From Mobula hypostoma (taxonomy: Eukaryota): a stretch of 64,000 nt of DNA. Positions 15,116 through 29,868 of the stretch are shown one piece after another; within the stretch, counting starts at the first letter, position 1; each line of letters opens with the position of its first letter. The translations under genes and the position numbers were made by a program. The notes beneath the pieces were generated by a model. That model did not search any database. It was given only the letters and a program-made list of their open reading frames with translations, and was not told the DNA's origin. Location: the NCBI RefSeq assembly GCF_963921235.1, contig NC_086097.1, positions 109,308,001-109,372,000 of the forward strand. The letters are read 5' to 3'.

Positions 15116-17232
15116 GTTTAGTGTATCCAGGAATGTTTCTTAAATAAATATGTGGACAGTCCAACGAAAGGAGGGGCCTTACTGAACCTGGTCTTCAGCA
15201 ATGAGCCTAGTCAGGAAACAGTCAGAAAACAGTGCCCACAACTCCTTAACTTTCTGGATAGCTGTAGATAAAGATAGGTATGGTCTTTGCGGGAGAGTTT
15301 TAACTTGGAGTAGGGCAAATTACGAGGCATGAGGAAAAGCTAAGAAGAGTTAAATGGGAACATCTTTTTTTCTGGCAAGTCCGCATCAGATATGTGGAGG
15401 AGGTTTAAAGATCAATTGCACAGAGTACAAGAAAGGTATGGTCCTTTTAGAAGGAAGGGCAGGGATAGAAAGATAAGAGAACCTTGAATGTCCAGAGAGG
15501 TGATGGATTTAGTCAAGAAGAAAAATGAAAAGTATGTAAAGCTTCAGAAGTTACGATCAATTGAAGCATATGAGGAGTTTAAAGAAACCAGAAGGGAACT
15601 AAAGAAGTGAATTAGGAAAGCCAGGAGGGGCCATTAAATGTCCTTGGCAAGGTGAATCCCAAGACATTCTTATACATACATCAAGAGCAGGAGGATAACT
15701 AGGGAAAGGTTGGGACCACTAAAGAATAAAAGGGAGAACATTTGCTTGGATGCGGAGAATATGAGTGAGGTACTTACTAAAAACTTTGCTTCAGTATTTA
15801 CCAAGGGAAAGGACATGGAGGACCAGGAGATCAGTGCTGAGTATATAAATATGTTACGGCATTAAGAGGTCAAGGAGGAGGAAGTGTTTGGTCTCCTGAG
15901 TATTAAGGTGGGTAAGACCCCAGGGCCTGATGGAATTTACCCCAGGTTATCGAAAGAGGCAAGAAACAAGATTGCTGGTGCCCTGACCAGTATGTTTTTG
16001 TCCTCTCTAGCCACAGGCAAGTGGCTAATATTGTATCTCTGTTTAAGAAGGGAGTAAGAGAAAATCCTAGGAATTATAGACTGGTGAGTCTTACATCAGT
16101 TGTAGGTAAATTGCTGCAGAAAATTTGCAAACCCATGGCTTAATTTGGGAGAGCCAGCTTGGCTTTGTGTGAAGCAGGTCATGTTTTACCAACTTGAGTT
16201 TTTTATCAAGGTGCTGAGAGAGATTTAGGAGGGTAGGACAGTGGATGTTGTTCCCAGAGCCCCTCATGGGAGGTTAATCTGGAAGATTAAGATGCATGGG
16301 GTTAGGGGCAAGTTGACTGTTTGGATTCAGAACTGGCTTGTGCATAGAAGACAGAGTAGTGGTTGAAGGGAGTTATTCTGGAGGTCTGTAATTAGTGGTG
16401 TTCCACAGGGACCTGTGCTGGGACCTCTGCTGTTTGTGATGTATATAAATGACCTGAATGAAAATGTAGGTGGCTGGGTTAGTAAATTTGTGGATTATAC
16501 CAAGATTAGTGGAGTTGTAGGTAGTGCAGAAGATGAGCAAAGACTACAGCACAACATTGATCAGTTGCAGATTTGGGCAGCAAAATGGCAGATGGAGTTT
16601 AACCCAGATAAATGTGAGATGCTGCACCTTGGGGGAGAAAATGCAAAGAGACAGTACACTGTTAAGGGCAAGGTCCTTATCAGTGCTGCTGAGCAGAGAG
16701 GTCTTGGGATCCAGGTTCACAGCTCCTTCAAATTGGCAACGCAGGATGATAAGGTGGTTAAGAAGGCTTGTAGAATTCTTGCTTATACTAGTTGAACTGA
16801 GTTCAAAAGTCAAGAGGTTATGTTGCAACTTTATAAAACTGTGGTTAGGCCACATCTGGGGTATTGCATACAGTTCTGGTCACCCCACTATAGAAAGGAT
16901 GTTAAGACTTTGGTTGAACAGGATGCAGCCTAGTTTAGAGGGCATGTGCTATCATGAGAAGCTGGATAAACATACGTTGTTTTCTCTGGAGTGGCAGAGG
17001 CTGAGGGGAGATCTGATAGAGGTTTATAAGATTATGAGAGGCATAGAGAGACTAGAGAGTATCTGTTTCCCAGTGTTTAATACCAGAGGGCATGCATTGA
17101 AGATCTAAGGAAGATGGAGGGATGTGAACATGGAGTAGGTAGAAGGGATTAGTATTTCAGTGTTTTTGATTTGCTTTTTAGCTAGTTTGGCACAACATTG
17201 TGGGCTCTGGCCCGTTCCTGGCCTACACTATT
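15116..17232 (+). mobile_element. CR1 LINE, degenerate
   Basis: LGPLLFVMYINDL...WVSKF, WQMEFNPDKCE, RLRGDLIEVYKIM; upstream EN/linker remnants. Confidence 0.9.
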
Positions 17233-17701
17233 GTGTGTGTTTTTTTAAATCCCTTTAGAAAACTTTTCCAAAAATTCCAAAAGGTTTGTCAGACGTCCCA
17301 TGCGCAAATCCATGCTGACTATTCCTGATCAGGCCTTGACTATCTTAGTGTTGGTAGATCTTGTCCCCCAGAATCCACTCCTGTATCTTCCACACAATTG
17401 AAGTAAGTTTCACCTCTCTGTAATTCCCTGACCTGTTCACATTTCCCGTTCTTGAGCATGTATAACATTTGCTCATATTGTGGATAAGATGCCTTTTCTC
17501 ATAACTGTGAACATTAAGTAGCCCAGATCTCCCAACAATTCCCCAGACATTTTGTGTGGGCTGAGAATGCCAATTTGCTTTCAATGAGGTGCAAGATAAG
17601 TGTATCACTTCTTATGGAAATAGACAGAAGAATACTGGAGGCTTCTTTGTCTGCCAGATTGAAGAATCCTCAATGAATCATACAGCACAAATCATTAAAC
17701 A

Positions 17702-17876
17702 GAGAAACATAGAAACCCTACAGCACAATACAGGCCCTTTGGCCACAAAGCTGTGCCCAACATACCCTTACCTTAGAAATTACCTGGGGTTACTCATAGC
17801 TCTCTATTTTTCTAAACTCCATGTGCCTGTTCAGGAATCTCTTAAGAGACCCTATCGTATCTGCCTCCACCACTGT
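17702..17876 (-). mobile_element. CR1 3' end fragment
   Basis: Closely resembles the CR1 3' ends at 39759-39930 and 49367-49496 (CATAGAAA..CTACAGCACAATACAGGCCCTT). Confidence 0.85.
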
Positions 17877-17999
17877 GGATTAGATTATATCATGCAATGA
17901 AAATGAAAATTGTCTCTCATAATAACCACACTGCTTTTTCAATAAACTTTTGTTTGCTAAAATTATGCATCCCAATTCTTTAAAATTTGAGTGCATATA

Positions 18000-19194
18000 C
18001 AGGTAGAGTACCCCTTATCTGAAATTCCAAAATCCGAGAACTGCTGAAATCTGGATATTTTTTTGAATGCTGGCATGGAGTCACAAATGGAAAATTCCAC
18101 AAGATGCTGGGAGTGTTCCCAGGTGATGCACAGGTCTCTGTGCACCCCAGTCAGTTCAGAGAAGTGACCTCACATATGTAATATATATATATATCCTAAA
18201 GGGATTGGACAGGCTAGATGCAGGAAGATTGTTCCCGATGTTGGGGAAGTCCAGAACAAGGGGTCACAGTTTGAGGATAAAGGGGAAGCCTTTTAGGACC
18301 GAGATTAGGAAAAACTTCTTCACACAGAGAGTGGTGAATCTGTGGAATTCTCTGCCACAGGAAACAGTTGAGGCCAGTTCATTGGCTATATTTAAGAGGG
18401 AGTTAGATATGGCCCTTGTGGCTACGGGGATCAGGGGGTATGGAGGGAAGGCTGGGGCAGGGTTCTGAGTTGGATGATCAGCCATGATCATAATAAATGG
18501 CGGTGCAGGCTTGAAGGGCCGAATGGCCTACTCCTGCACCTATTTTCTATGTTTCTATGTAATGAACTGAGTTAATGAAAAATAGAAAAACAATGTATAA
18601 AGCAAATAACGAAAATTTTGACCTTTTATCGTCAGCAGCAGAGTGAACATTGGCCGCTTAACGGTATGGTGATCATGAAACAAGCAAAGATCTATCATGA
18701 TGAACTAGAAATTGAAAGTAGTTGTGAATATTTGACTGGGTGGATGCAGAAATTTAAGCATTAAATTTTAAAGCATTGGCTGATCAGAAAAATCTCACAC
18801 CAGAGCAAGTCTTCGAAGTTGATTGTTTTTGTACTTTACATAAAAGCTAAAAAAAGTAAAATACAAATACAGTGAACTGTAACCTTAATCTAAACACGGC
18901 GTCGTAGGAGGAGACTGAAAGCCTGCCATTGTTTGTTGTTGTTCAACAGAAAATTGAGGTGTTCTCCTGATGCTGCTGTGCTGCTTTTGTTACCCTGCAC
19001 ACGTTCTATTTTCGCATACATTAATAGTATGTAATAATTTTTACTGTTAAATACATTTGTGTGATGACTAAGTGTAAGACAAAGACTGCTTACTGGTAGC
19101 ATATAAATTCAAATTTGGAAATTATTGTGCTTCCAGAATCCAAAATCCAAACCACTTCCGGCTCCAAGCATTTTGGATAAGGGTACTCAACCTG
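18000..19194 (+). mobile_element. Tigger-like (MER2/Tigger3-type) DNA transposon remnant
   Basis: Imperfect TIRs CAGGTAGAGTACCCCTTATC and GATAAGGGTACTCAACCTG; TA at left; CENP-B HTH remnant NGMVIMKQAKIYHDELEIE..GWMQKFK near 18660-18760. Confidence 0.85.
18195..18560 (+). mobile_element. CR1 3' fragment inserted in the Tigger
   Basis: ORF LFPMLGKSRTRGHSLRI...FFTQRVVNLWNSLP; TTTCTATG tail. Confidence 0.93.
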
Positions 19195-21716: not shown

Positions 21717-23277
21717 GCTTAGGCAAAGTTTTTGACAGCTCTCTAAGGGACACAACATCCATTCAGGCAACCTGCAACGAGTTGTCTGTGGACAAGTCTG
21801 GCCTATCTGGGAAGTTTAAAGCCTGGGTCTATCAGCATGGCATTCTTCCCAGAATCCTGTGGCCCCTCCTCGTCTATGCAGTTCCGATCTCGACAGTCGA
21901 AACCTTAGAGAGGAGGGTTAGCAACCACCTCAGGAGATGGCTGGGGCTGCCAAAGAGCCTGAGCAGCATCGCACTCTATGGACACCACAACAAACTGCAA
22001 CTGCCCTTCAAATCCTTGGAGGAAGAATTCAAGGTAACAAGAGCCAGAGAAGTGCTACAGTATAGGGACTCAAGTGACCCGAAGGTGGCTAGAGCAGGGA
22101 TACTGGCAGGAAGTGGAGGGCAGAGGAAGCTGTTCAGGAGGCAGAGGCGAGGCTGCATCACAGGAGGCTGGTGGGAGTGGTCACACGAGGCCGAGCTGGG
22201 CTAGGATCCTTTCCAACTCCCCAAATGGACACTAGAGGGAAGGAAAGGCGTCGTCTAGTTCAGGAGGAGGTGAGAGCAGTAGTGGAGGAAATGAGAGCCT
22301 GCAAGGCGGTGAGAATGAAGCAACAGGGAGCTTGGACAAGATGGGAGAATGCAGTTGAGAGGAAAGTGACCTGGGCTGATCTTTGGAAATCCAAAACACA
22401 CTGTATGCAATTTCTTATCCAGGCAGTGTACGATGTGCTTCCAAGCCCATCAAACCTGCACACATGGGGCAAGGCAGAGTCACCTGCGTACCCACTGTGC
22501 TCCAAGCAAGGAACACTGGAGCGCATCCTCAGCGGCTGCGCAAGGGCACTTGTTGAGGGATGGTACAGGTGGAGGCATGATCAGGTCCTGAAGACCATCG
22601 CTGAAGCCATCAGTGCAGGAGTTGAGTGGGCGAAGCGGTCCCGACCCTCCAAGCAGACCATTGCCTTTCTCAGAGCTGGGGAGCAGCCAATGCCTGCCAA
22701 AAGAACACCTGCAGGCATTCTGACCTCTGCAAGGGACTGGCAGCTGTTGGTGGACCTTGAATGGCAGCTGAAGTTCCCCAACCATATCGCAGCCACCACC
22801 CTACAACTAGACATTGTCCTAGTGTCTGAGTCTACTAAGCAAGTGGTGCTGCAGGAGCTGACAGTCCCCTGGGAAGATAGCTTGGAGGAGGCCTTTGAAA
22901 GGAAGCTCTCCAAGTACACAGGACTGGTCAACAGCTGTTAACAGGCTGGATGGAGAGCGAGGTGTCTCCCAGTCGAGGTTGGTTGTAGGGATTCGTATCC
23001 TGTTCTTTAGTTAGAGCCTTCAGCATTTTGGGCATCGAGGGAGAGAGGAAGAGGAGAGCCATCCGCAGTACCACCAATGCGGCAGAGAGGGCCTCAAGAT
23101 GGCTGTGGCTCAAAAGAGGGGAGCCATGGAGTCATAAGTAGCTAGCCATCTGGACACAAGCTGGGGTCTGATCAGCCCCGGCTGGGTCACCTGGAGGAGG
23201 TTGTATGATGTTGAAAGACCCAAAACACCCGATGATTCCAGGAACATCACTGAAGATGTGTCCAGAAGCATCAATAG
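21717..23277 (+). mobile_element. HERO-like non-LTR retrotransposon with restriction-like endonuclease, 5'-truncated
   Basis: RT thumb region (GKFKAWVYQHGILPRILWPL), degenerate CCHC knuckle, WRHDQVL, RLE motif DIVLVS..ELTVPWE..K..KY, C-terminus AERASRWLWLKR ending at stop 23138-23140; frameshift plus an internal TAA. Confidence 0.88.
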
Positions 23278-23705
23278 ACAGCTGGTTCCATACATTTTAA
23301 CTTATCAATTTGGAGTTACTCAAGGTGAAATTATTGTGGAATTTATATTAGTGAAATAGTACTTGTCTTCTCAGAGACTTCTAGGTGTATTACATATTGG
23401 CAATTGTGAAGTAAAGCAAAATTATCCTTCAGCATATTACTTCTTACATGAAGCAGTAAATGAAACAATTATCAAGGCTTTTCATTATCTATTTTAATCT
23501 AACGATTAGCATTTAAAATTATCTAATAGCAATGTACCAATGCTATTTCATGTTCTGATAGAGTTCAGCAAAACTACAGTATGTTCTTGGTTCCCGATAC
23601 AGTTTATATGAATACATGCTTAACAATGCAGTACAATAAGCACACACTCTTGCAAATGGGGTGAAATCAGTGAATGCTCTCGCTGTTCGAAAATGATTTA
23701 GTAGT

Positions 23706-23776
23706 TTATTTTTCTGCATCCTTTTCATCATCTTCTGCAAGCACTGGTTGCTTCTCCTCTCTCATTAATTTTACAC
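23706..23776 (-). CDS. Candidate terminal coding exon of an unidentified host gene: (G)VKLMREEKQPVLAEDDEKDAEK*
   Basis: Strong acceptor TTTTGTTTTTTTTCATTCCAG with a TTAAT branch-like motif about 30 nt upstream, followed by non-repetitive AT-rich UTR-like DNA. Protein not recognised; reading phase is assumed. Confidence 0.4.
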
Positions 23777-23849
23777 CTGGAATGAAAAAAAACAAAACGA
23801 TGTATTAACTATCCCCAAGTCAGGTTAAAAAACATCATACTGCTTCTTC

Positions 23850-26830
23850 CCATATAACCATATAACAATTACAGCACAGAAACAGGCCATCTCGGCCCTT
23901 CTAGTCCGTGCCGAACGCTTACTCTCACCTAGTCCCACCGACTTGCACTCAGCCCATAACCTTCCATTCCTTTCCCGTCCATATAGCTATCCAATTTAAC
24001 CTTAAATGACAATATTGAACCTGCCTCAACCACTTCTGCTGGAAGCTTGTTCCACACAGCTACCACTCTCTGAGTAAGGAAGTTCCCTCTCATGTTACCC
24101 CTAAACTTTTGCCCTTTAACTCTCAACTCATGTCCTCTTGTTTGAATCTCTCCTCCCCGCAATGGGAAAAGCCTATCCACGTCAACTCTATCTATCCCCC
24201 TCATAATTTTAAATACCTCTATCAAATCCCCCCTCAACCTTCTATGCTCCAAAGATAAAGACCCAACTTGTTCAACCTTTCTCTGTAACTTAGGTGATGA
24301 AACCCAGGTAACATTCTAGTAAATCTTCTCTGTACTCTCTCTATTTTGTTGACATCTTTCCTATAATTCCAGGACCAGAACTGTACACAATACTCCAAAT
24401 TTGGCCTTACCAATGCCTTGTACAATTTCAACATTACATCCCAAATCCTATACTCAATGCTCTGATTTATAAAGGCCAGCATACCAAAAGCTTTCTTCGC
24501 CACCCTATCCACATGAGATTCCACCTTCAGGGAACTATGCACCATTATTCCTAGATCCCTCTGTTCTACTGCATTCTTCAATGCCCTACCGTTTACCATG
24601 TATGTCCTATTTTGATTAGTCCTACCAAAATGTAGCACCTCACATTTATCAGCATTAAACTCCATCTGCCATCTTTCAGCCCACTCTTCTAACTGGCCTA
24701 AATCTCTCTGCAAGCTTTGAAAACCTACTTCATTATCCACAACTCCACCTATCTTAGTATCATCTGCATACAGTACTTACTAATCCAATTTACCACCCCA
24801 TCATCCAGATCATTAATGTATATGACAAACAACATTGGACCCTGTACAGATCCCTGGGGCACACCACTAGTCACCGGCCTCCAATCTGACAAACAGTTAT
24901 CCACCACTACTCTCTGGCGTCTCCCATCCAGCCACTGCTGAATCCATTTTACTACTTCAATATTAATACCTAACGATTGAACTTCCTAATTAACCTTCCG
25001 TGTGGAACCTTGTCAAAGGCCTTACTGAAGTCCATATGGACAACATCCACCACTTTACCCTTGTCAACTTTCCTACTAACCTCTTCAAAAAATTCAAACA
25101 GATTTGTCAAACATGACTTTACATGCACAAATCCATATGGACTGTTCCTAATCAAATCCTGTCCATCCAGATAATTATATATACCATCTCTAAGAATACT
25201 TTCCATCAATTTACCCACCACTGACGTCAAACTCACAGGCTGATAATTGCTCGGTTTACTCTAAGAACCCTTTTTAAACAATGGAACCACATGAGCAATA
25301 GGCCAATCCTCTGGCACCATTCCCGTTTCTAATGACATTTGAAATATTTCTGTTAGAGCCCCTGCTATTTCCACACTAACTTCCCTCAAGGTCCTAGGGA
25401 ATATCCTGTTAGGACCCAGAGACTTATCCATTTTTATATTCCTTAAAAGTGCTAGTACTTGCTCTTCTTTAATCATCATATTTTCCATAGCCTCCCTAGA
25501 TGTTTCCCTTACCTTACACAATTTTAAATCCTTCTCCTTAGTGAATACTGAAGAAAAGAAATTGTTTAAAATCTCCCCCATCTCTTTTGGCTCCACACAT
25601 AGCTGTCTACTCTGATTCTCTAAGGGACCAATTTTATCCCTCACTATTCTTTTGCTATTAATATAACTGTAGAAACCCATTGGATTTATTTTCACCTTAC
25701 TTGCCAAAGCAACCTCGTAACTTCTTTTAGCTTTTCTAATTTCTTTCTTAAGATTCTTTTTACATTCTTTATATTCCTTGAGCACCTCATTTACTCCATG
25801 CTGCCTATATTTATTGTAGATATCTCTCTTTTTCCGAACCAAGTTTCCAATATCCCTTGAAAACCATGGCTCTCTCAAACTTTTAACCTTTGCTTTCAAC
25901 CTAACAAGAACATAAAGATTCTGTACCCTCAAAATTTCACCTTTAAATGACGTCCATTTCTCTATTACATCCTTCCCATAAAACAAATTGTCCCAATCCA
26001 CTCCTTCTAAATCCTTTCACATCTCCTTAAAGTTAACCTTTCTCCAATCAAAAATCTCAACCCTGGGCCCAGTCCTATCCTTCTCCATAATTATACTGAA
26101 ACTAATGGCATTGTGATTACCGGACCCGAAGTGCTCCCCAACACAAACCTCCGTCACCTGACCTATCTCATTCTCTAACAGGAGATCCAACACTGTCCCT
26201 TCTCTAGTTGGTACCTCTATGTATTGCTGCAAAAAACTATCTTGCACGCATTTGACAAACTCCAAACCATCCAGCCCTTTTACAGAATGCGCTTCCCAGT
26301 CTATGTGTGAAAAATTAAAATCTCCCACAATCACAGCCTTGTGCTTACTACAAATATCTGCTATTTCCTTAAAAAATTTGCTCCTCCATTTCTCGCTTCC
26401 CATTTGGTGGTCTATAATACACCCTTATAAGTGTTACTACACCTTTTCCATTCATCAATTCCAACCAAATAGCCTCCCTAGACGAGCCCTCTAATCTATC
26501 CAGTCAGAGCACCGCTGTTATATTTTCTCTGACAAGCAATGCAACACCTCCCCCTCTTGCCCCTCCAATTCTATCACACCTGAAGCAACGAAATCCTGGA
26601 ATATTTAGTTGCCAATCACACTCCTCCGGCAACCATGTTTCACTAATAGCTACAACATCATACTTCCAGGTATCAATTCATGCTCTAAGCTCATCCACTT
26701 TTCTTACGATGCTCCTAGCATTAAAATAAATGCACTTAAGAAAATTTTCACCTCTTACTCTCTGTTTATCACTAACGATGCAAACAACTTTACTATCTCC
26801 TTTTTCTTCCTTCTCCCCTACATCTGTTCC
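23850..26830 (-). mobile_element. CR1 LINE with nearly full ORF2 (EN+RT), frameshifted
   Basis: ORF chain 26403-23929: VIVGDFNF, INPMGFYSY, SLTSVVGKLME, DFSKAFDKVPH, LVRPNLEYC, RRLRGDLIE; (TTATATGG)n tail at 23850. Confidence 0.96.
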
Positions 26831-28115: not shown

Positions 28116-28977
28116 AAGCCACTGGAAGGGGCTGGGAGATGTGCTCGACTGCATCTCCAATGTGGTATATCAGGTGCTGTTGCCTGAGCAGCAGAAGACA
28201 GTTGTACTACACTGGGACCGGCTGGGGCAGTATCAGTGTTGGCCATCACAGACCCAGTGAAGCGGAAGGAAGAGGTAATACTCCGAGTGTCCTGCCTCTT
28301 GCCTCACCAAACAGTGCTTTCCCTGGGGGAGGGGGCTACAGAAACACCTCCCTGCGCCCCTGGCAGCAGCGTTGACCACCATTGGGACTCTCCAATTTTA
28401 TTGTGGACTCTTAGGATGCCAGGGATGGCTGCCCCTCAGGTGGGGGCAGTGTGGTGCTCCGGGGGCCTGGTCGACAACTTGCCCCAGCATTCTTAGCAGC
28501 CAAAACTATTTGTTCTTCTTGTTTTAAAGTGCTTTCATGGGACTATGGTGGGATGATGTTCAAGTTCATTTATTGTTACATTTTAGGTTGGGTTAATCAC
28601 TTGTGTGTTTGTTTGCTACTCTGAATGTAACTGGGGTGTGTAATAATCATCTCCTCCGTCTGTATGGTTCTCACTGTGTGATGGCACTCTGTCGTTTATT
28701 GTGCTTGCCATAATAAAACCAGCAGTTGAGATAAACAAGCTTTTCTCATCTGTCATCATGGACTGAATGCTTGCCACAATATACTTACTGTAATTCATAA
28801 CATATATGATACTAAATCTGATTCTGATTTTGATACTGTAGACAAATTCAAGGTGTGAGGCTTCGTGTTGTTCCTTTATTGAATATAGCATTGGTTGCAA
28901 TGACTAACCGACAGTGACAGCAGCATTTTCATTCCAAGGGTTTAAAACTACCTGTGTCTGATCATTTGAACATAAAT

Positions 28978-29868
28978 TCTGCAAAGGTTGGTGGTGTTGT
29001 AGATAGTGTAGAGGATTGTCAAAGATTGCAGAGAGACATTGATAGGATGCAGAAGTGGGCTGAGAAGTGGCAGATGGAGTTCAACCCGGAGAAGTGTGAG
29101 GTGGTACACTTTGGAAGGACAAACTCCAAGGCAGAGTACAAAGTAAACGGCAGGATACTTGGTAGTGTGAAGGAGCAGAGGGATCTGGGGGTACATGTCC
29201 ACAGATCCCTGAAAGTTGCCTCACAGGTGGTTAGGGTAGTTAAGAAAGCTTATGGTGTGTTAGTTTTCATAAGTCGAGGGATAGAGTTTAAGAGTCGCGA
29301 TGTAATGATGCAGCTCTATAAAACTCTGGTTAGGCCACACTTGGAGTACTGTGTCCATTTCTGGTCACCTCACTATAGGAAGGATGTGGAAGCATTGGAA
29401 AAGGTACAGAGGAGATTTACCAGGATGCTGCCTGGTTTAGAGAGTATGCATTATGATCAGAGATTAAGGGAGCTAGGGCTTTACTCTTTGGAGAGAGGGA
29501 GGATGAGAGGAGACATGATAGAGGTATACAAGATAATAAGAGGAACAGATAGAGTGGATAGCCAGTGCCCCTTCCCCAGGGCACCACTGCTCAATACAAG
29601 AGGACATGGCTTTAAGGTAAGGGGTGGGAAGTTCAAGGGGGATATTAGAGGAAGGTTTTTTACTCAGTGGTTGGTGTGTGGAATGCACTGCCTGAGTCAG
29701 TGGTGGAGACAGGTACACTAGTGAAGTTTAAGAGACTACTAGACAGGTATATGGAGGAATTTAAGGCGGGGGCTTATATGGGAGGCAGGGTTTGAGGGAC
29801 GGCACAACATTGTGGGCCAAAGGGCCTGTACTGTGCTGTACTTTTGTATGTTCTGTGTTCTATGTTCT
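28978..29868 (+). mobile_element. CR1 3' fragment, relatively young
   Basis: 255-aa ORF (KVGGVVDS...WQMEFNPEKCE...LVRPHLEYC...RMRGD); TGTTCTA tail. Confidence 0.96.

Follow-up and report, generated by a model that had tools for sequence, protein, structure and literature searches.

The 3′ UTR of a Hero-like retrotransposon copy in Mobula hypostoma holds a six-helix RNA motif with a hammerhead core, whose strands follow one another as cleavage block (S), GAAA block (G) and CUGANGA block (C), block C being split. What is observed directly comprises the helices, the letters of the core, the splitting of block C and the element's head-to-tail tandems. The best explanation, given a probability of about 0.5, is a 3′ UTR RNA with an SGC-order hammerhead core whose slow self-cleavage would feed translation of the element.

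The host element and the architecture of its 3′ UTR

In the window, i.e. the whole 64,000-nucleotide stretch analysed, positions 21717..23281 of the plus strand (as for all features below) hold a 5′-truncated copy of a Hero/Zebulon-like RLE non-LTR retrotransposon, which matches a full-length 3.6-kb unit at 93.8% from 21717 on and has protein homologs in teleosts and amphioxus. Using tblastn with P0019 and P0058, a C-terminal ORF remnant comprising the end of the RT, the CCHC knuckle and the RLE endonuclease was located at 21717..23141; it is disrupted by frameshifts and a premature stop, and the stop codon of the family is the TAG at 23139-23141. A search with the C-terminal protein returned 207 homologs at E≤0.001, and the 120 listed were mainly from teleosts plus amphioxus with 52-82% identity. 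The element is close, at about 60-64% protein identity, to two Tetraodon proteins sharing one 90% cluster, BAC82599.1 (P0121) and AAN12398.1 (P0058), which we take to be HEROTn and Zebulon, respectively. The family is likely to be HERO/Hero, as judged by identity to these two proteins. Fragments of what are presumably CR1-like LINEs lie around the element (window 16367-18468, 23929-26424 and 28918-29721). Full-length relatives contain an RT domain, in some cases with a zf-RVT match, and their closest solved structures are R2 proteins. The single ORF with RT, CCHC knuckle and C-terminal RLE conforms to the R2-group RLE architecture, as judged by features given in the available parts of PMC3636483 and PMC5678591.

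The motif (23149-23266) begins 8 nt past the family stop codon and fills nearly the whole 3′ UTR. The crossing helices and hammerhead-like motifs that the first-pass annotation had named in this 118-nt stretch were all read from the sequence at the positions it gave, the extents of two helices needing correction. The 5′ strand of P1 (23149..23158) pairs with 23257..23266, with two-sided changes at 10/10 pairs and 92.7% of cells paired. It is followed by the P2 hairpin (23159..23183), which is supported by covariation and carries at its apex a palindrome, CTGATCAG (23168-23175), predicted to be a kissing-loop dimer signal. This hairpin had been placed at 23163-79; it exists, but it extends further, U23183 pairing with A23159 to close it. 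Next comes the 5′ strand of P3 (23184..23188; partner 23217-21, 96.1% paired), which takes the place of the 10.x strand in stem II. The proposed TGGGTC/GACCCA helix holds as GGGTC/GACCC (23184-88/23217-21) but loses its outermost pair, U23183-A23222, which is no part of the family helix and is available in the window copy only because of its G-to-A change at 23222. The 5′ strand of P4 with a K-turn GA (23190..23198, the GA at 23197-98) covaries with its partner and is the equivalent of the helix through which stems I and II interact in type SGC, as described in the available text of PMC10085705. The 5′ strand of stem III (23199..23205) ends in U16.1 (23204) and N17 (A23205), and the hammerhead register places the predicted cut between 23205 and 23206. 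The 5′ strand of stem I with a 4-nt linker (23206..23216, linker 23213-16) again covaries with its partner. The 3′ strand of P3, the GAAA box and the 3′ strand of stem III occupy 23217..23230, G12 being an A at 23222 in the window copy; the K-turn bulge GAT and a second GA (23231-35) precede the 3′ strand of P4 within 23231..23242; the 3′ strand of stem I and the CUGAAGA box, supported by alignment and covariation, occupy 23243..23256; and the 3′ strand of P1 (23257..23266) follows directly after A9. A terminal hairpin and tail (23268..23281), recognised from homologs and sibling copies, complete the element, the tail being 10 nt shorter than the family 3′ end seen in sibling copies. When the two core boxes are kept in place, 25/26 possible pairs form in the window copy, a number reached by 0/3,000 shuffles (mean 19.1, maximum 24). 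Plain MFE folding is modest (z -2.37; 4/200 shuffles equally stable).

The strand order had been said to match none of types I-III. This is correct, but the order itself has already been published as type SGC in the available parts of PMC10085705. The earlier statement that stem II is weak does not hold: stem II is split, the canonical 10.1-11.1 pair being possible in 5/52 homologs and GACCC pairing instead with the 5′ strand. A canonical stem II was tried and rejected, as it was 46.9% paired, 109/500 shuffles were as high, and its first pair could form in 1/26 sequences. Stem II is not closed by a 10.1-11.1 pair directly after A9; the base 5′ of GAAA pairs with a near-invariant G of the separate 5′ strand (G23184, the G10.1 equivalent; G in 50/52 homologs versus 34% in shuffles), and the pair equivalent to 10.1-11.1 is GC in 23 and GU in 2 of 26 sequences. 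The junction is tight, with P1 starting 0 nt after A9 in 40/43 non-redundant homologs and P2 flanked without unpaired nucleotides on its 5′ side in 35/43 and on its 3′ side in 33/43. We infer that the core, P1, P2 and P3 meet in a four-way junction that replaces the A9-G10.1 link, which makes the motif resemble a hammerhead of the SGC class that has been opened within block C. It has the S, G, C order and the short linker between stems I and II (4 nt in the window) of type SGC, and P4 joins the same two strand ends as the SGC interaction helix, by comparison with the available text of PMC10085705; it departs from type SGC in that block C is interrupted. The motif is classed neither as a hammerhead nor as type SGC, because its stem II differs and cleavage is a prediction; it is nevertheless predicted to work like a hammerhead. 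Hammerheads accept one extra base between 9 and 10.1, according to the part of PMC4209133 available, and no tested hammerhead with a break between A9 and G10.1 was found in the literature covered.

Conservation, covariation and core letters

Out of 352 metagenome loci, the best 80 were fetched by protein alignment alone (37-81% identity), the RNA not being a criterion. The motif was recovered by a descriptor in 52/80, by a covariance model in 60/80 and by the two together in 61/80. When at least 340 nt of downstream sequence was present, it occurred in 57/64 loci at a similar place past the ORF. The seven misses comprise one locus ending inside the motif (L155), one with both boxes that remained unparsed (L199) and five without any trace (L179, L191, L212, L213 and L214); in two of the latter, L212 and L214, short GGGATTA repeats lie downstream in place of the motif. 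Four of the loci matched by the model only have damaged cores (L163, L201, L209 and L159). None of the 80 metagenome loci showed terminal repeats.

The six helices were scored on a blind MAFFT alignment of 26 sequences, comprising the window and 25 of the 52 parsed loci, which gave 91.3% paired cells and two-sided changes at 37/42 pairs. None of the 500 shuffles attained any of five covariation measures, a test inflated by the relatedness of the sequences, and a partner-sliding control, which retains that relatedness, gave 35-42% paired. The crossing helices covary as well (P3 96% and stem I 91% paired), so the covariation that the first-pass annotation had named as a check is strong on every helix. 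The second check it named, retention of CUGANGA and GAAA, was likewise passed, both boxes being kept across elements whose median protein identity is 47% (44 motif-bearing loci). Conservation of the six-helix RNA structure can be regarded as practically certain from this comparison. A chance look-alike or one-copy artefact, for which the modest MFE z-score and the failure of Rfam to match could be cited, is exceedingly improbable, as the covariation (0/500 shuffles on all five measures, against 35-42% when slid), the core letters and the recovery of the motif in 57/64 homologs at a similar place past the ORF rule it out.

At least three further subfamilies of the Mobula genome carry the motif with compensatory changes (L063-L067, L031, L046 and L076). 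Another subfamily (L073-L075, G000:C12) has lost the whole cleavage block S and keeps P1-P3 and both core boxes. In viral contigs, two pattern matches in unrelated sequence were rejected as chance and no relatives of the protein were found.

The fixed letters of the motif are mostly those of the hammerhead core, NUH included. Among the parsed homologs CUGANGA is present in 50/52 and GAAA in 49/52, counts partly built in because both boxes served as search anchors; a fairer count is that of a box on the sense strand with GAAA upstream, 57/80 versus 6/80 on the reverse strand. The CUGANGA box lies directly 3′ of the stem I 3′ strand, and GAAA is followed by stem III, the A15.1-U16.1 pair being U-A in 26/26 alignment sequences. 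With the register set by pairing alone, U16.1 occurs in 52/52 and H17 in 51/52 homologs, against 19% and 14% in shuffles; NUH was not anchored in the choice of register, yet the 52 had been parsed with the U required. N7 and N17 vary, N7 as in hammerheads, and N17 changes over the protein tree between A, C and U (a tree in which L183 is mis-framed and L148 wrongly labelled ‘none’). An alternative register with GAAA at 23213-16 was rejected on visual inspection, as no CUGANGA follows its stem I.

The AAAA of the window copy had been read as a possibly decayed GAAA, and the genome bears this out: 1,762 pattern matches have GAAA versus 318 with AAAA at this CpG, and a reversed control gave 0 for both. 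Since G12 sits in a CpG, the window copy most likely lost it by CpG decay. G12 is the general base of hammerheads (available part of PMC6155905), and the window copy is predicted to be inactive.

The K-turn consensus consists of a 3-nt bulge followed by tandem G-A/A-G pairs. Between P4 and stem III lies a loop that matches this consensus and is a predicted K-turn, with both GA steps in 33/43 non-redundant homologs, one in 5/43 and none in 5/43. The apex of P2 is palindromic over at least 6 nt in 27/41 homologs (shuffle mean 4.9, maximum 13). In the 31 sequences whose palindrome spans 4 nt or more, the core is GATC (17), GGCC (6), ACGT (3), GTAC (2), CATG (2) or AGCT (1), and it changes on several branches of the protein tree, a distant subgroup being devoid of the palindrome. 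This pattern suggests a kissing-loop dimer signal. A terminal GC..GU hairpin 3′ of P1 is found in 20/41 homologs versus a shuffle mean of 1.6, its descriptor having been composed after the data were seen.

Tandem copies and the function of the motif

One genome pattern returned 100 matches in which the 3′ end of a unit is joined directly to a unit start, so that the motif sits directly before that start; 67/100 reach beyond the predicted cut. Host DNA right before a unit start is infrequent (4 of the 27 shown). Seventy of the 100 junctions were mapped, including all 33 whose start lies downstream of the predicted cut; the other 37 were drawn from the remaining 67. Among the short tandem units, 0/33 start at the predicted cut, the nearest being at +3; genome-wide patterns for cut-site junctions, which catch a minority of true junctions, gave 0 for 5′ and 0 for 3′ junctions (controls 0 and 1), and no indel at the predicted cut occurs in 130 copies. 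This lack of a cleavage footprint implies that integrated templates were uncut or re-joined, which limits or opposes a self-cleavage reading. In 8/33 short units the start lies at +50 to +53 (23256-23259), the boundary between P1 and the core; genome-wide this cluster is unclear, with 5 matches (one an indel) versus 2 in the control. Starts are sparse within 72 nt upstream of the cut (7/67). The start pattern at the P1/core boundary may reflect stalling of the RT on folded RNA.

Non-autonomous units of ~0.8-1.1 kb were also seen (L243, L250, L259, L237, L251, L287, L071 and L072), in which ~550-710 nt from the 5′ end are combined with a motif-bearing 3′ end of ~220-440 nt. They have formed tandems too; in L243 and L259 the upstream unit has the same internal deletion. 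Splicing was rejected as the origin of these short units, as the deletion breakpoints lack GT/AG. At one locus (L229, G000:C55:53289878) part of the motif, in inverted orientation, adjoins a unit start. The predicted N-termini of P0087 and P0084 resemble translations of the motif, which suggests that tandems exist in other species too.

In the best explanation, stem II would be built from the separate 5′ strand of P3 across the four-way junction, the core would stack on P3 as it does on stem II and P1 on P2, and P4 with the K-turn would hold stems I and II together. Copies with intact GAAA are predicted to self-cleave slowly or conditionally after the base at 23205. In a tandem transcript, the upstream copy would cut ~86 nt before the unit start, and the trimmed RNA would feed translation of the ORF, whose conserved coding precedes the first in-unit AUG. 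The cut RNA would lose its 3′ terminal hairpin and would not be copied, and uncut RNA, docked on the RT and probably paired to a second RNA via the P2 loop, would serve as the template. Conservation of the protein begins upstream of the first in-unit AUG, and in a tandem the motif ends ~12 nt before an ATG in the tail. In 32/36 copies no stop interrupts the first 60 codons of the frame set by this ATG (other frames 6 and 0), a difference that carries little weight because the copies descend from effectively one master sequence. The role of the cut in translation is proposed by analogy with RNA viruses, in which hammerhead cleavage can drive cap-independent translation and uncut RNA is kept for replication (available part of PMC13725137). 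It is likely that the motif cleaves in vitro, and the chances of a role in vivo for cleavage of the upstream copy, argued by analogy, are about even. Cleavage of the downstream copy would cost the element its own 3′ end, which counts against cleavage, as do the failure of a canonical stem II and the damaged cores of several covariance-model matches.

The same fold could be derived from a hammerhead that is catalytically dead and act at the 3′ end only, as a docking site for the RT and a platform for RNA dimerisation. The failure of canonical stem II, the missing junction or indel footprint at the predicted cut, the position of all inspected family-A 3′ ends downstream of an intact motif, and the palindromic loop and terminal hairpin, which point to RNP roles, would all be explained. 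A dead fold accounts poorly for the retention of G12, G8, G5, A9, U16.1 and the G10.1 equivalent and for the avoidance of G17 at a median protein identity of 47%, the helix letters changing freely meanwhile, and it is considered unlikely, although it is the main rival. Of the two functions that the first-pass annotation had left side by side, self-cleavage and RT recognition, self-cleavage is somewhat favoured.

The tandems bear on a further alternative, in which cleavage followed by re-ligation would yield circular unit-length RNA and rolling reverse transcription would then generate partial tandems, a model proposed for Penelope-like elements (PMC4209133, in the part available). The ~28 bp of P1, P3, P4 and stem III would keep the two products attached to each other and thereby promote ligation; tandem junctions are exact, and units that begin at that very point are few; and units of one insertion share minor variants beyond chance (50 versus a null mean of 10.1 and a maximum of 23, over 50 pairs) and sometimes an internal deletion (L243, L259). 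Yet 38 full-length pairs have 26 concordant and 59 discordant diagnostic sites, where independence of the units would predict 107 discordant sites and later mutation no more than 16. It follows from the 59 discordant sites that about half of the tandems join different templates. Moreover, L165 and L171 are head-to-tail units on one 9.1-kb contig that are only 68% identical, both with GGCC loop palindromes. One circle copied twice cannot give differing units, so the circle is disfavoured and rated rather improbable; template jumping between paired RNAs fits the tandems better.

Novelty and comparison with known systems

In keeping with the proposal that the RNA is possibly undescribed, no ribozyme or structure for Hero or Zebulon 3′ UTRs was found in the literature listings and paper passages covered. 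The available parts of PMC3636483, PMC7650587, PMC13580325, PMC5678591, PMC2688523 and the main text of bioRxiv 10.64898/2026.07.22.740005 contain no such ribozyme, and Hero is unmentioned in the text and supplement of PMC10085705 as far as available. Rfam gave 0 matches for window 22500-24000 (E≤10) and 0 for six other loci (E≤1). It appears somewhat probable that the motif is an active hammerhead with a four-strand core, a four-way junction at A9-G10.1 and a K-turn clamp, which would lie outside the six published permutations. Eukaryotic genomes would then have their first non-circularly permuted ribozyme, one kept throughout a retrotransposon clade and linked to dimerisation by kissing loops, which would drive tandem retrotransposition. 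If the motif cleaves, hammerhead block C would be divisible after all, against the accepted rule; a non-circularly permuted hammerhead would be present in thousands of copies in animal genomes, missed by Rfam and by descriptors requiring a canonical stem II; and the Hero clade would have a processing mechanism parallel to those of R2 and Penelope, using a third RNA design. Without cleavage, a ribozyme core would have survived long divergence in a non-catalytic function, and the R2-group RT would have a defined, deeply conserved 3′ template module.

The host element resembles HEROTn and Zebulon in having one ORF with RT, CCHC knuckle and RLE and in not being site-specific; Zebulon reportedly forms partial tandems. 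The closest known RNAs are the type-SGC hammerheads (HRIMA-1 and variants; Eckert et al. 2023, PMC10085705, in the parts available), which have the same S-G-C order and core letters, a short linker between stems I and II and a helix joining the far sides of these stems. Unlike them, the Hero motif has block C split between A9 and G10.1, assumed to be impossible in the available parts of PMC10085705, and adds the P1/P2 four-way junction and the K-turn. The type-SGC RNAs of that study come from metatranscriptomes and have been shown to cleave, whereas cleavage of the Hero motif is predicted. The hammerheads in pseudo-LTRs of Penelope-like elements and in animal retrozymes (PMC4209133 and bioRxiv 10.64898/2026.07.22.740005, in the parts available) likewise place a ribozyme-like motif in a repeated end, with partial head-to-tail tandems, short non-autonomous derivatives and weak expected activity. 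Those motifs are minimal type-I hammerheads in GIY-YIG elements, however, which the Hero motif is not, being pseudoknotted and carried by an R2-group RLE element. The HDV-like 5′ ribozymes of R2 (PMC3636483 and PMC7650587, in the parts available) belong to the R2 group too and have a proposed role in co-transcript processing and translation; they differ in fold and lie at the 5′ end, whereas the Hero motif belongs to the 3′ UTR and comes to stand 5′ of a unit solely by tandem arrangement.
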